In this document: piece by piece, positions 12,235 through 17,763 of the stretch
Layout: each line of letters opens with the position of its first letter
Position numbering within the stretch: the first letter of the stretch is position 1
Assembly (NCBI GenBank): GCA_035510735.1
Contig: DATKGN010000004.1
Span: forward strand, 307,810-371,809
Source of the DNA: Patescibacteria group bacterium
GTDB lineage: Bacteria; Patescibacteriota; Microgenomatia; UBA10105; UBA927
Direction of reading: 5' to 3'
Length of the DNA: 64,000 nt
Translations under genes and position numbers: made by a program
Notes under the pieces: model-generated
The model's input: the letters and a program-made list of their open reading frames with translations, nothing else
Database searches by the model: none
What the model was told of the DNA's origin: nothing

Positions 12235-13152
12235 ATGAATGAAGTTCGTGTAGCAGAAGTTCCAGCTGCAGAAAGACATCTTGATATGCCGATTGAGGTG
12301 TATTTAATGAATGCTGCGACGAACGACGAACGAATAGTTATGGAAAATACATTCGCCTTCTGGCAGCCATTTAAGAATCCTTACACGGATGAGATAAAGG
12401 ATTCAGGATCAACAGTAGGATTGGAGAGTAGGGCCGGAGGTATGTGCGTGCATCTAATGGATGGGTATTTCGTTACCCCGAAACACGTGAGTGACGCGTA
12501 TTCTTTATCGGATGACTCTGAAGTAGAATTCAGAGATAGGATTCCAGATGTGATTTTTGATATTTATGGAACCAAACGGAATATCCAACCAGATTTAATA
12601 TTTTCTAATCCTCGATATGCATTGAGAACATTCGATGATTTCGTGATTTTTAGGGTTGATCCTATTAAATATCCGTGGATACAACAATTACCACGATACC
12701 CTATTATTTCGAATCACAAAGTTGCTGTGGGTCGTTCAATTTGCGTGGGAGTACCTGATCTTATATTTCCGTTGGGGTTTGATGAGAAAGGTGATCCATT
12801 AGTTGTTGATAACGTGGGACGTCAACTGACGGTTCGTTTGAAGGAAAACGACGTACCAATTTGGAAAAGAAAAGTTTCTATTGAAGAAGCACGTCTCCAT
12901 GCTCGAGCAGGAGAGGAGTATCCCTCTTGGTTTTTTGGTGTGCCAATGACAAGAGAAGCAAAAGGATATACAAAAGGACCCTTCATTAATAATGAGATGT
13001 TTATTAGTAAAGGATATAGCGGGGGACCTTTAATTCATAATGGTGTATTGCTTGGGATGGTTGTCGAACCTGATGTTGAATTTGGGAGCGGTGGGGGAGG
13101 ATATGCGGTTGATATTAAATTAGTGTTTAAGACGTTGCGCGGATTGATGTAG
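12235..13152 (+). CDS. Cytoplasmic trypsin-like (S1/chymotrypsin-fold) serine protease-like protein inserted between dnaK and dnaJ
   Basis: GYSGGPLIHNGVLLGMVV matches the GDSGGP catalytic-serine motif. TPKHV is His-box-like. DDFVIFRVD could supply the Asp. No signal peptide. Confidence 0.5.
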   Translation: MNEVRVAEVPAAERHLDMPIEVYLMNAATNDERIVMENTFAFWQPFKNPYTDEIKDSGSTVGLESRAGGMCVHLMDGYFVTPKHVSDAYSLSDDSEVEFRDRIPDVIFDIYGTKRNIQPDLIFSNPRYALRTFDDFVIFRVDPIKYPWIQQLPRYPIISNHKVAVGRSICVGVPDLIFPLGFDEKGDPLVVDNVGRQLTVRLKENDVPIWKRKVSIEEARLHARAGEEYPSWFFGVPMTREAKGYTKGPFINNEMFISKGYSGGPLIHNGVLLGMVVEPDVEFGSGGGGYAVDIKLVFKTLRGLM

Positions 13153-14934: not shown

Positions 14935-15012
14935 ATTGTCAAAAGCCAGCTTCAAATTCCGACACACCTCAATCACAGGCAAAAAGAATTACTTGAAGAA
15001 TTAGAGGTCTAA
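14935..15012 (+). repeat. Duplicated dnaJ 3'-end fragment ([25 protein letters not shown]-stop), a diverged copy of 14011-14093
   Basis: In-frame peptide nearly identical to the DnaJ C-terminus ([27 protein letters not shown]). The nucleotide differences are mostly synonymous, and an in-frame stop lies immediately upstream. Confidence 0.8.
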
Positions 15013-15999
15013 AACCCTGCCAATTCCAAGCTCGATGAGGGAGAGTGAATTAAGAAGAGTAGAAACGAATGTCGGATCATAAGAATTGAACGACGGGTCT
15101 GCATAGTATTTACGGCTTAATGCGTATACCTCTTCGATATTTACCACTGATTGCATCAATGAAGTATCAATTGTGCTATATCGGTGTTGGGCTAGTTCGC
15201 GATAGTACCGAAATTGTTGAGATACCCAATCGACGAGTATTTTCCTTTGTTCTTCAAAAGTTGCATGTACATGGTCTACAAAACTGCTCTGGTATTTTTG
15301 TTGTGCTTCAGATTCCCAATGACCCATTTCCCTTATCATGTCTCGTTCTTCTTGCCTGAAAACATCATTTAGTAGATTCGAGACCATAAAACTATAGTTC
15401 GGGTTATCAAGATAGCGGATGAGTTTGTTCGTGCTAATACCATGAAAAGTGAATGGAGCCACGGTGATATCATGTGTTGCGAATATCGGGACGGTATAGT
15501 GAATATGGGGAATAGGGCGTTGTTCCTCTGCTAACTGCATCAGGCGCATGGCTACAATTCCCGACGTAAAAAACTTATCACGACCTTCATCAATTGGAAA
15601 CGTATATTTGAGTGCAAATTCTTTTTTACCGTCGTTAGTGATTAAAAATATTGTGTACACTTTGCTTTCCATCCCTCCCAATGTATTGTTCCCCTGAATA
15701 ACGTGTCCGTCGTATATTTGAGAGAGTATTCCTGGATTGTTGGCTAAGAGATGTACGCCTTCCGGTGAAGCGATAAACGTAGCAGGAACCAAACCTGCAA
15801 GTGTTTGTTCATTGTGTTCTAACGAGGCGATTACAGTGTTTCCCATGAAATCATGAGAAACCATAACGCCGGGTAGTTCGGTGGGTTGCAGCCTGGTATC
15901 CAGGTATCGCTGTATAGCGTCTAGTGGTGGTTTATCAAATCTGGTTATATATTTAAGGCGTTCTGGCGGTCTATCCATAGATGGCGGCGATTGTATCAA
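15001..15999 (-). CDS. Hypothetical protein
   Basis: 332-aa ORF with no recognisable family. Its stop codon lies inside the duplicated dnaJ fragment. Confidence 0.55.
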   Translation of the reverse strand: MIQSPPSMDRPPERLKYITRFDKPPLDAIQRYLDTRLQPTELPGVMVSHDFMGNTVIASLEHNEQTLAGLVPATFIASPEGVHLLANNPGILSQIYDGHVIQGNNTLGGMESKVYTIFLITNDGKKEFALKYTFPIDEGRDKFFTSGIVAMRLMQLAEEQRPIPHIHYTVPIFATHDITVAPFTFHGISTNKLIRYLDNPNYSFMVSNLLNDVFRQEERDMIREMGHWESEAQQKYQSSFVDHVHATFEEQRKILVDWVSQQFRYYRELAQHRYSTIDTSLMQSVVNIEEVYALSRKYYADPSFNSYDPTFVSTLLNSLSLIELGIGRVLDL

Positions 16000-16209
16000 A
16001 CTGTGTATTATTTATCCATAATTTTGCATCGGGGATTGCAAACCAATGGGCAGAGTGACGCATACGAAATTCCCTTCGGGCATATTAAGTTGATTATCCC
16101 CAATATCGAAAAGGCAAGAGATGTACTATTGGGAGGGGAATTTAAAGAAGTAGCAGATAAACTAACGGTACTGTCTAAATTAGTTGAAGATGATATCGTT
16201 TCTAACGAT

Positions 16210-16324
16210 GGAGCGTTGGCAGAGCGGTAATGTCGGAGTTCTCGAGACTCTAGGAGGCTAAAATACATCATAATTAAGTGTGTTAGTAAGTGTTTCGTAG
16301 GTTCAAATCCTACACCCTCCGCCA
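16210..16324 (+). tRNA. tRNA-like gene (type II/Ser-like features) with a ~45-nt AT-rich insert between the anticodon arm and T arm; 3' CCA encoded
   Basis: Acceptor GGAGCGT/ACCCTCC (one mismatch). 3-bp D stem with GAGCGGTAA loop. Anticodon stem GGAGT/ACTCT with 7-nt loop TCTCGAG. Canonical T arm GTAGG-TTCAAAT-CCTAC. Discriminator G then CCA. Total 115 nt, too long for any standard tRNA. Confidence 0.45.
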
Positions 16325-16478
16325 GGACGGACAAAATATAAAACGAGTTATCTGGCAATCCAGAGCATACGAAAAACACATTCGAACTAAAGAATATGTT
16401 TAGCTTGAGAGGAGGCGGGATTTGAATCTAACTATTTATGATGTCAGAAGAAATATTATTTCTCGATTTAATTAAGGG

Positions 16479-17360
16479 TCAATAATTGGTAAACCCAACT
16501 TTTGGATTTTGACACATATCGAAATTAGAAAAGCTTGCTACTCCAATTCCAGAACCACTACCGGTAGCAGTAAGCCGTAAATTACTCAACGCACTTTGGA
16601 TGTTTGTAAATTCGGAAACAAGATGATAATCCACCTCATTGTGCAATTTGTATGAAAGTTTCACATCAGTGCCAATTTTCAGAATTTTGAATCTTAAAGG
16701 AACATTTGTTGGAGTTTTGATATTGGAAATCCCAGTATCGTTTGATTTTCCATTCGAAATATTATAAGCTCTTACTCCACCTAAGTTGTCTCTAAGCAAT
16801 ACAACCCCATTTTTCAGATCTTTATCCCTTAGTACAATTGTTCCAATCATTTGATCGGAAGAACTGTCTGTTTCTACGGGTAATACGTCAATCTCAATTG
16901 ATATGTTTTCAGTATTTAAATTCGTCATCTCTACTGCACGACCACGCCAACTTTTCTGTAAACCCACTTTTTCAATCAACTGTGAATTTGATACATTAAA
17001 ATTGTCGCGGGAATCTAAACTAGTCGGACTTGCTACGATATTCCAATTCTGTGAATTAAGTGTAATACCGGGGAAAGTGTCCTGTAATTCAGTCGAACAA
17101 GGTGCAATCACCGGACTACTTATTGGCGATGGAACGACAGGAGTTGGTGTTGGTTGAACTAAGGAGATTTGTTGTTTCAGTTGCATATTTTGATACGCAA
17201 AGAATCCCGCAGCTCCGAGAACAAGGAGCAGAATAATAATTATACATACCATTAATAGCGGGTTATTTGATTTTACAGGCATTGGCGTAACCGGTTGTAT
17301 TGGAAATGGCTGTGAAGGAGTCGGAGGTATCGGCGTTTGAGGAGGAATAATAGGTTCCAT
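16479..17360 (-). CDS. Proline-rich membrane-anchored protein with extracellular domain (hypothetical)
   Basis: N-terminal P-rich repeats (PIPPTPSQPFPIQPVTP), one TM helix and a ~200-aa exported domain. Confidence 0.55.
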   Translation of the reverse strand: MEPIIPPQTPIPPTPSQPFPIQPVTPMPVKSNNPLLMVCIIIILLLVLGAAGFFAYQNMQLKQQISLVQPTPTPVVPSPISSPVIAPCSTELQDTFPGITLNSQNWNIVASPTSLDSRDNFNVSNSQLIEKVGLQKSWRGRAVEMTNLNTENISIEIDVLPVETDSSSDQMIGTIVLRDKDLKNGVVLLRDNLGGVRAYNISNGKSNDTGISNIKTPTNVPLRFKILKIGTDVKLSYKLHNEVDYHLVSEFTNIQSALSNLRLTATGSGSGIGVASFSNFDMCQNPKVGFTNY

Positions 17361-17547
17361 AAATTTATCATAGCATGATTAAATTTATTAAACGATAAGA
17401 TTTACGCTACAATTCAATTGTCCTTGAGGTAAGATAGTGGTTTTGAAATAGGTTATAACACTGTAAATAGTTCTCCGCACAAATTTTTTTGTTCACCCGT
17501 ATATCTGTGATATTATATGTGTGTTTACTAACACACTTAACATAACA

Positions 17548-17568
17548 AGCCCTTTCGTGGGGCTTTTT
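17548..17568 (+). terminator. Rho-independent terminator-like hairpin (AGCCC-TTTCGTG-GGGCT + TTTT)
   Basis: 5-bp GC-rich stem plus U-tract, downstream of a possible weak promoter (TTGTTC ... TATTAT) at ~17490-17515. Confidence 0.45.
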
Positions 17569-17587
17569 ATGTGGCCGGCCGAGGAGA

Positions 17588-17616
17588 TTGACGGGTGATG
17601 TGTAAGTGAGTATAAT
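17588..17616 (+). promoter_or_regulatory. Consensus sigma-70 promoter TTGACG-N17-TATAAT
   Basis: TTGACG 17588-17593, 17-nt spacer, TATAAT 17611-17616. Transcript would start ~17623, i.e. ~140 nt upstream of the nusA ATG. Confidence 0.65.
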
Positions 17617-17640
17617 ACGGCTAAGATTTGTTCTCGATGA

Positions 17641-17666
17641 GGTGGGATGTTCCCACCTTTTTTATT
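17641..17666 (+). terminator. Strong intrinsic terminator/attenuator hairpin GGTGGGA-TGT-TCCCACC followed by TTTTTTATT
   Basis: Perfect 7-bp stem plus 6 U, located ~20 nt after the predicted transcription start and 100 nt before nusA. Confidence 0.6.
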
Positions 17667-17683
17667 AAAAAGTTAATTTTAGT

Positions 17684-17751
17684 ATCCTGTTTTTTAGGAA
17701 AAACAGGATGAAGAGACCACTAGTCTATTTTGTTAGGAAACAAAATAGACT
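17684..17751 (+). promoter_or_regulatory. Twin perfect palindromes (11-bp and 13-bp stems, loops TAGG / AGGA) immediately upstream of nusA
   Basis: ATCCTGTTTTT-TAGG-AAAAACAGGAT (17684-17709) and AGTCTATTTTGTT-AGGA-AACAAAATAGACT (17722-17751). The two share sequence similarity. Confidence 0.5.
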
Positions 17752-17763
17752 GTGGATACTAAC

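Follow-up and report, generated by a model that had tools for sequence, protein, structure and literature searches.

Seryl-tRNA synthetase reads a tRNA's long variable arm together with its G73, not the anticodon. tRNA-Sec has a 13-bp acceptor plus T helix and an extended anticodon stem, and allo-tRNAs have acceptor/T stems of 8/4 or 9/3 bp (12 bp). Mobile insertion cassettes, e.g., MIC231 of Bacillus cereus, have inverted repeats of the insertion sequence (IS) type and carry passenger genes but no transposase. In B. cereus, the pseudo-tRNA tRNA-Other lies beside strain-specific DNA, is unlikely to act in translation and has an insertion at its 3' end in some strains (PMC3399842). An allo-tRNA pseudogene overlaps a transposon-related open reading frame (ORF), and allo-tRNAs have longer acceptor and anticodon stems than those of canonical tRNAs (PMC7609411). 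Here, we analyze a 115-nt tRNA-like element at positions 16210-16324 (+) of a 64-kb stretch of a Patescibacteria contig, referred to throughout as the window. In this element, a tRNA-like 5' half is separated from a T arm and acceptor 3' strand by 45 nt.

We find it probable that the element is a pseudogene or relic derived from tRNA-Ser, possibly a chimera, which lies in a scar of mobile DNA and is not a working decoder. The tRNA-Ser(GCU) of other Patescibacteria (GGAGGGTTGGCAGAGCGGTAATGCAGCGGCTTGCTAAGCCGT...ACAGGTTCAAATCCTGTACCCTCCGCCA) has the same GGAG.../ACCCTCC acceptor, T loop, G73 and CCA, and its D arm is the same except at position 25. Like allo-tRNAs and tRNA-Sec-like molecules, the element combines serine-type identity elements with the anticodon of another amino acid and is associated with mobile DNA; unlike in allo-tRNAs, its acceptor/T stems are 7/5 bp, its anticodon stem is 5 bp, and its variable region is far longer than that of any of them. 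Like tRNA-Other, it is tRNA-like, adjoins strain-specific DNA and is unlikely to act in translation. However, tRNA-Other is of normal size and has documented expression and phenotypes (PMC3399842), whereas the defect of the element is its 45-nt variable region.

Results

A tRNA-like element with a 45-nt variable region

The element consists of a 5' half (GGAGCGT-TG-GCA-GAGCGGTAA-TGT-C-GGAGT-TCTCGAG-ACTCT), the 45-nt insert and a 3' half (GTAGG-TTCAAAT-CCTAC-ACCCTCC-G-CCA) in which CCA is encoded, exactly as laid out in a preliminary description of this DNA (Table 1). The default Rfam scan of the window gave no match to the element, and default ARAGORN reported zero tRNAs anywhere in the 64 kb. 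With relaxed filters only, the tRNA model RF00005 spans 16210-16321 from end to end (model positions 1-71) at 36.2 bits and an E value of 3e-6, above the curated cut-off of 29 bits, and its alignment places a 43-nt insert in the variable region. Once the 45 nt were trimmed to ≤27 nt, ARAGORN called a tRNA at the exact ends of the element, reading the anticodon as tcg in 379 of the 416 deletion variants called. Thus, default predictors miss the element because its variable region is too long.

The acceptor stem contains a C5:C68 mismatch, which the preliminary description did not mention, leaving six of seven pairs. The stems are otherwise standard, with 7/5 acceptor/T pairs and an anticodon stem of 5 bp, or of 6 bp if a U-G pair and a 5-nt loop are allowed. 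The predicted fold of the whole element is no better than that of shuffled sequences (z −0.82); the cloverleaf is predicted to be 7.6 kcal/mol worse than the minimum-energy fold, with an acceptor-stem pair probability of 0.006. The 45 nt alone fold at −5.5 kcal/mol, a value that 29% of shuffles reach or better. Upstream of the element we found no sigma-70-like promoter, whereas the nusA promoter of this organism agrees with the consensus in 11 of 12 positions.

A 79-codon open frame, 15991-16230 (+), enters the first 21 nt of the element and stops in the D loop. Contigs L002 and L004 have a 75-aa gene call for it; it has no family match and may be a gene remnant or spurious.

Serine-type origin and defects

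We scanned 185,579 species, one genome each, for loci with the same D and T loops and 40-70 nt between these anchors, corresponding to variable regions of 16-46 nt. The scan returned 47 loci, all of them tRNA-Ser except one anomalous Clostridia locus (L016). They include tRNA-Ser(GCU) of Patescibacteria (WWE3, Saccharibacteria and Yanofskybacteria), tRNA-Ser(CGA) of Lactobacillales and archaeal tRNA-Ser, some of the latter with introns after position 37. The D arm of the element is identical to that of tRNA-Ser of WWE3, Saccharibacteria and Lactobacillales, and the letters of D arm and T loop together match tRNA-Ser of other Patescibacteria, Lactobacillales and archaea. Its 3' part shares 28 of 29 positions with a tRNA-Ser(UGA) of viral contig L084 and 24 of 26 with Patescibacteria tRNA-Ser(GCU). 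Because the loci sharing its D and T loops are nearly all tRNA-Ser, we classify the element, on its letters, as a derivative of a class II, serine-type tRNA. This agrees with the Ser-like features noted earlier, namely G73, the 3-bp D stem and the GGAG start; the acceptor as a whole is of the form GGAG...CTCC.

None of the 47 loci, which do not include the element's own species, resembles the element as a long-arm orthologue. A metagenome scan with the GGAG prefix and a gap of 50-80 nt between the anchors yielded solely an unrelated gut tRNA-like element.

Two side observations came from these searches. Eight contigs from human-gut and other metagenomes (L054-L061) carry a near-identical, unrelated tRNA-like element of 98-100 nt (GGAGATGTGGCAGAGTGGTAATTGCG...GGAGGTTCGAATCCTCCCATCTCCACCA; e.g., L055 136-233) that has A73 and in which a long G+C-rich insert separates the D arm from the T arm. 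In a simple, unaligned parse, Lactobacillales genes of the tRNA-Ser(CGA) type (L011, L013, L014, L018, L021, L022 and others) have a T discriminator and no encoded CCA, and the other tRNA-Ser genes of the comparison set have G73.

The element departs in several respects from bacterial class II tRNA-Ser, as represented by the 43 intron-less genes of the scan set together with nine genes from viral contigs. First, position 33 is U in 43/43 comparable tRNA-Ser and C in the element. Second, all seven acceptor pairs are formed in 43/43, whereas a G-to-C change at position 5 breaks the 5:68 pair of the element. Third, the variable region measures 16-22 nt in the comparable genes, and the statement that 45 nt exceeds known variable arms therefore holds for this set. 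Fourth, true Patescibacteria tRNA-Ser score 59.5-59.8 bits with RF00005, ~23 bits above the element. Finally, the element does not lie at a conserved tRNA locus. Class II tRNA-Ser are characterized by G73, a 3-bp D stem and a variable arm of 13-22 nt in total with a short helix. Among these features, G73 and the D arm are present, and the 45-nt variable region has no helix better than that of shuffled sequence.

The loop reads as anticodon UCG with C33, as the preliminary description had it. This anticodon is not of the serine family (NGA or GCU) and corresponds to the arginine codons CGA and CGG. The loop UCUCGAG does hold CUCGA, as found in CUCGAAA, the canonical loop of Ser(CGA), but with a displacement of one position, so that the geometry gives UCG.

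The architecture does not fit tmRNA, nor does it fit tRNA-Sec or allo-tRNA, given the 7-bp acceptor stem, 5-bp T stem, 5-bp anticodon stem and an anticodon other than UCA. A viral origin was likewise rejected, as no related tRNA was found in viral contigs. The 16-mer of the variable region (see below) has 74 matches in viral contigs, approximately the number estimated for chance and without similarity in the flanks, and no phage match was found for the neighboring gene ORF293 or for the DNA around the element.

Host and genetic code

The window contains dnaK, dnaJ, nusA, infB and a DHH-family gene; upstream, ORFs lie where annotated relatives have hrcA and grpE, and others further downstream lie where these have pnp and rnj. 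NusA has a 100% identical match labeled Patescibacteria group bacterium; its closest named relatives are Candidatus Gottesmanbacteria/Microgenomates, and judged by these genes the host is a bacterium of the Patescibacteria. We aligned ten conserved window genes with their relatives. At CGA codons, the relatives have Arg in 51 of 62 aligned cells; at CGG codons, of which the ten genes contain 70, Arg occurs in 224 cells, and the next residue, Lys, in 19. The 46 UCG codons of these genes align with Ser. The genetic code, as read from these alignments, is standard, and a reassignment of CGA/CGG to Ser is ruled out. Because CGA and CGG mean arginine here, a serine-charged UCG decoder would mistranslate and be harmful.

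These data bear on whether the element could be a working class II tRNA of serine identity with an oversized variable arm. Its score above the Rfam cut-off, G73, the GG of the D loop, the T loop TTCAAAT and the encoded CCA all favor such a tRNA, as does the abundance of UCG codons in the window genes. However, the loop geometry gives UCG and not CGA, behind C33, and would decode arginine codons; none of the 43 comparable genes has the C5:C68 mismatch; the arm has no stable helix; and the related syntenic loci read have no such element, while its homologous copy on contig L075 is degenerate (see below). Thus, of the attributes of a working elongator, it has the score and lacks U33, seven acceptor pairs and conservation in relatives. 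We consider a working tRNA quite improbable. A genuine giant variable arm is not supported, since shuffles so often equal the fold of the 45 nt and these cannot be aligned base for base with L075.

Repeats around the element

The 45 nt are composite. They read, in order, AGGAGGCTAAAAT, ACATCATAATTA, which has an inverted copy at 16433-16444, and AGTGTGTTAGTAAGTGTTTC, which contains most of a 16-mer. This 16-mer forms a perfect inverted repeat with a second copy to the right of ORF293 (Table 1). Only these two copies occur in the window, even with three mismatches allowed, and when the 3-kb region was shuffled 300 times, perfect inverted repeats reached at most 14 bp. Both arms are flanked on their outer sides by CATAA. 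The repeats and the flanking 5-mers thus have the geometry of terminal inverted repeats with a 5-bp target duplication, enclosing 1267 bp (16274-17540), and the interior holds the T arm, the acceptor 3' strand, CCA and ORF293.

This arrangement resembles mobile insertion cassettes in its 16-bp perfect repeats, 5-bp flank, 1.27-kb interior, single passenger gene and absence of a transposase. It differs from them in that the 64 kb contain no second copy or parent IS and the homologous L075 block lacks the repeats. In addition, its interior starts with a tRNA 3' half, which mobile insertion cassettes are not known to have.

Two further fragments of a tRNA 3' end are present within 1.2 kb. To its right, a diverged, inverted partial copy of the variable region, T arm and acceptor 3' part reads ACATCATAAATA-GTTAGATTCAAATCCCGCCTCCTC; the counterpart in the element is ACATCATAATTA-(AGTGTGTTAGTAAGTGTTTC)-GTAGGTTCAAATCCTACACCCTCC, and the copy lacks the ~20-nt piece bearing the 16-mer. 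Beyond ORF293, an att-like remnant repeats the tRNA 3' end in direct orientation. Its equivalent in L075, GGTTCTCCGCCACG, forms a perfect 11-nt direct repeat, TCTCCGCCACG, with the tRNA-like 3' end of that contig. The homology between the window and L075 stops at this remnant. In assemblies of different samples, three contigs of the same strain have ends at 17465, 17471 and 17471; of these, L005 also stops at 16271, 3 nt before the 16-mer, and a fourth contig, L006, ends at 17437 and 16243.

Like att sites, then, the locus has a copy of the tRNA 3' end in direct orientation beyond a cargo gene (11 nt perfect in L075, degenerate in the window), and assemblies break at the repeat. Unlike att islands, it has no integrase, its only cargo is a 293-aa gene, and it carries an additional inverted fragment and the inverted-repeat/target-duplication signature. 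No integrase lies between the repeats of the tRNA 3' end, where ORF293 is the sole gene; neither ORF293 nor the neighboring ORF332 belongs to a Pfam or PHROG family.

Further readings of the repeats were considered. A site-specific inversion between the 16-bp repeats was set aside, although not firmly: it leaves the flanking CATAA unexplained, and the contig ends at 17465-17471 miss the right-hand repeat. The hairpin at 17547-17565 has a CACGAAA loop on the minus strand and was considered as a displaced anticodon or T arm, but no D arm or acceptor strand adjoins it, and a terminator is the better reading.

The repeats also bear on the suggestion, made in the preliminary description, that an intron or bulge-helix-bulge (BHB)-like insertion occupies the variable region. 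If an intron of the archaeal BHB type, or a self-splicing one, were spliced out, a normal tRNA-Ser of 85-90 nt would remain, introns of similar size do occur in archaeal tRNA-Ser(CGA) that share these D and T loops, and the intron mode of ARAGORN calls a gene at the same ends. However, the archaeal introns follow position 37, and splicing endonucleases belong to archaea or eukaryotes, whereas the host is a bacterium; endonuclease genes were considered within the window only. There is no strict 3-4-3 BHB with 3-bp flanking helices in the 115 nt. At 45 nt, the insert falls far below the size of group I or II introns, and a relaxed Rfam search of 16100-16450 (351 nt; E up to 10) found no intron family, its matches being the tRNA model and four weak ones evidently due to chance. 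The ARAGORN parse, "tRNA-Glu(ctc) + 20-nt intron", requires a 4-bp anticodon stem with one mismatch and switches the identity to Glu. Moreover, the insert shares the 16-mer and a 12-mer with neighboring DNA, which fits local DNA rearrangement and is unexpected for an intron. We regard an intron as extremely improbable.

ORF293 and its homologous copy

ORF293, a near-orphan gene that would be the cargo, is predicted from its translation to have an N terminus rich in proline, a single membrane helix and then an outer domain. Full-length relatives number only two among 1.8 billion representative proteins; the remaining matches cover only the N-terminal module.

As a separate observation, its 5' leader and N terminus (17140-17403) share ~75% DNA identity with a different, 273-aa gene of the same sample series (L076 2-240; L077 1-258), and ~200 other proteins have the N-terminal module only. 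From these matches, the N terminus looks like a reusable module on variable surface proteins.

The only homologous copy of the block in our data is L075, a 1594-nt contig cut ~62 nt upstream of its T arm. It carries an ORF293 homologue with 77% amino acid identity and a different right-hand neighbor, and the ORF with its flanks (window 16410-17456) shows ~81% DNA identity. Its tRNA-like 3' end, GGGTTCCAGACCTACCCTCTCCGCCA, has a damaged T loop and T stem and an acceptor 3' strand that differs at three positions; upstream of the T arm there is no base-for-base alignment with the element. Even at E up to 10, Rfam did not recognize the tRNA-like element of L075. If such a block contained a working tRNA, conservation would be expected to peak there, whereas the element is the worst-conserved part.

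The locus in related genomes

A stretch of ~1.5 kb, lying between the start region of ORF332 and the working nusA promoter and holding the element and ORF293, is absent from four related syntenic loci (Table 1). In L062, the closest relative with DNA (NusA 92% identical), dnaJ is followed by a 270-aa gene, 282 nt and then nusA, and window positions 14989-17603 have no counterpart. In the more distant relatives L067, L071 and L073, a homologue of ORF332 is placed divergently, right against the nusA promoter, and a tRNA is lacking. At the level of ORFs, a further contig (P0122) has two unrelated ORFs at this spot. An old, orphaned −35 box (GGGGATTGCAAAC, 16033-16045) persists beside ORF332, and the second, working nusA promoter (TTGACG-17-TATAAT) lies at 17588-17616. 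The G+C content of the stretch is 0.39-0.42 as against ~0.47 around it. As to the comparison with orthologous tRNAs and homologous loci that the preliminary description called for, no part of the element is present at the related syntenic loci, and the one homologous contig, L075, is degenerate in its tRNA-like 3' end and cut too close to its T arm for a strict verdict on the 5' portion.

A non-translational tRNA-like RNA, comparable to tRNA-Other and acting within a longer transcript or with an RNA partner, can be weighed against these data. The cloverleaf is still recognizable, and island-adjacent pseudo-tRNAs have precedent as regulators (PMC3399842). A perfect complement of the 16 nt of the variable region occurs, beyond chance, on the plus strand at 17525-17540; this partner lies just before the terminator-like hairpin at 17547-17565, a weak promoter-like site lies on the plus strand at 17443-17471, and the same 16 nt occur in sense within the presumed 5' leader of ORF293. 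In L075, the order of hairpin, CTAGGAG, T-arm-like sequence and GCCA recurs with different stem sequences. However, both the 16-mer and its partner are missing from L075, and the pairing is therefore not conserved. The flanking CATAA is expected of transposition and not of an RNA-RNA interaction, no promoter of the element was found, and its fold is not above that of shuffles. A role of this kind is in our view unlikely.

ORF332, 15001-15999 (−), and its homologues encode 325-332 aa. ORF332 lies divergently beside nusA in several related Patescibacteria, with 42-62% identity over seven homologues; L062, the closest relative, lacks it, and the L069 homologue adjoins a sortase gene. A link between the element and ORF332 was rejected, as ORF332 homologues occupy the same locus in relatives without the element.

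Between dnaK and dnaJ lies a 305-aa ORF, 12235-13152 (+), without a family match. In L062, L063, L065 and L067, dnaJ directly follows dnaK, making this ORF a second gene that these relatives lack, in the heat-shock operon; in another relative, the dnaK-dnaJ spot is taken by a gene for a 23S-rRNA-intervening-sequence protein.

A structured leader precedes nusA at 17588-17763 (+) and also in L062 (5985-6148) and, within the 190 nt directly before nusA, in L063, L065 and L067. It comprises the promoter and, after ~20 nt, a hairpin of terminator-like form (GAGGTGGGATGTTCCCACC with a T run), followed by two more hairpins, whose sequence varies among relatives while the pairing is kept. In Rfam it has only a weak group I intron match (20.7 bits). 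It may be an unrecognized attenuator of the nusA-infB operon in the clade.

Table 1. Coordinates of the tRNA-like element and of the features around it in the window
Feature	Position	Strand	Basis or remark
tRNA-like element derived from class II tRNA-Ser	16210..16324	+	RF00005 with relaxed filters; ARAGORN with a shortened variable region
5' part: acceptor 5' strand GGAGCGT, U8 G9, 3-bp D stem with loop GAGCGGTAA	16210..16251	+	
Anticodon arm GGAGT/TCTCGAG/ACTCT (C33, UCG)	within 16210..16251	+	
AT-rich, composite 45-nt "variable region"	16252..16296	+	repeats, fold, BHB scan
T arm GTAGG-TTCAAAT-CCTAC, acceptor 3' strand ACCCTCC, G73, CCA	16297..16324	+	
Left arm of 16-bp perfect inverted repeat, TTAAGTGTGTTAGTAA	16274..16289		preceded by CATAA, 16269-16273
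Right arm of 16-bp inverted repeat, TTACTAACACACTTAA	17525..17540		followed by CATAA, 17541-17545
Diverged inverted partial copy of variable region/T arm/acceptor 3' part	16405..16444	−	inverted repeats; conserved in L075
ORF293, near-orphan cargo gene	16479..17360	−	translation, 293 aa
att-like remnant, TAGTTCTCCGCAC	17467..17480	+	direct repeat of tRNA 3' end, TAGGTTC...CTCCGCCA, with internal deletion
G+C-rich hairpin plus T run, terminator-like on the plus strand	17547..17565		directly right of the right-hand CATAA
DNA absent from four related syntenic loci	16044..17586		comparison with L062, L067, L071 and L073

Discussion

Here, we describe fragments of tRNA-Ser, short repeats and one cargo gene at a single locus, and therefore read the locus as the residue of repeated integration or rearrangement at a tRNA gene. 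Among the three options offered by the preliminary description, disruption of a tRNA by a small insertion, or a scar of integration, comes closest to the evidence. We commit to reading the 45 nt as junction or insertion debris and not as an intron or a true arm. In the sequence of events that we suggest, a serine tRNA gene would have served as the integration site for a small cassette with ORF293, and direct repeats of the tRNA 3' end would now flank this cassette. A later insertion, duplication or transposition would have brought the variable region to 45 nt. This copy would have lost, or never had, U33 and the 5:68 pair and would no longer decode.

How the halves came together can be modeled more specifically. 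Tentatively, a transposase-less cassette bounded by the 16-bp repeats (16274-17540) may have brought in the T arm and acceptor 3' strand, although we judge this somewhat less probable than not. The cloverleaf would then be a junction artefact of two serine-tRNA halves, and the C5:C68 mismatch would arise because halves of two different tRNA-Ser were joined. The empty site would read ...AAAATACATCATAA followed directly by CAAGCCCTTTCG.... This sub-model accounts for the inverted repeat, the CATAA duplication and the contig end at 16271. It competes with a collinear tRNA-like gene carrying an att-type islet and small local insertions, which accounts for the direct repeats of the 3' end and the contig ends at 17465-17471. 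Moreover, the similarities to L075 and to the inverted copy cross the 16274 boundary: the spacing TTAAG...TAAG...GGTTC is as in L075, and ACATCATAA is as in the inverted copy. However, a collinear gene leaves the inverted repeat and CATAA as coincidences, each with a rough chance of ~1e-3 (for CATAA, as a flanking 5-mer).

Several observations weigh against a relic in a mobile-DNA scar, or against its cassette version. No transposase or integrase was seen in the 64 kb, and no further copy of the 16-mer was found in the 64 kb or the loci retrieved. The cassette sub-model requires that a tRNA 3' half landed beside a 5' half, which is improbable without targeting, and the spacing shared with L075 and the ACATCATAA shared with the inverted copy speak for collinearity instead. 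The D and T arms are perfect, CCA is kept and the score exceeds the curated cut-off, and relative to the T stem of tRNA-Ser(GCU) the T stem shows compensatory changes. Because the cloverleaf is still this good, the element should be young or under some constraint. Where the element has its anticodon arm, L075 forms a perfect hairpin of 6 bp whose sequence differs and to which CTAGGAG is again joined, and it shares the spacing TTAAG...TAAG...GGTTC with the window; taken at face value, a structure could be being kept there. Finally, the comparison depends on a single homologous copy that is cut at a contig end.

More speculatively, a cassette carrying a surface-protein gene and a replacement tRNA-Ser 3' half might insert into the variable regions of tRNA-Ser genes and rebuild an oversized cloverleaf, or the rebuilt RNA might be kept as a regulator tied to the cassette; we give these ideas little credence. 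Such a cassette would be the transposon-type counterpart of integrase-driven islands that restore their tRNA target. If the cassette sub-model is true, the locus would be a case of a tRNA 3' half carried by a transposon-like element, of which we know no described example.

The element is a case for annotation, in that it passes the curated score of a generic tRNA model and yet should not be counted as a decoder. A naive reading would make it a serine tRNA for arginine codons and thereby an oddity of the genetic code in Patescibacteria; the codon comparison says otherwise. As we read it, the locus is a compact example in which tRNA-Ser fragments, a near-orphan gene for a probable surface protein and short repeats have gathered in a variable spot of a very small genome, immediately before the essential nusA-infB operon.

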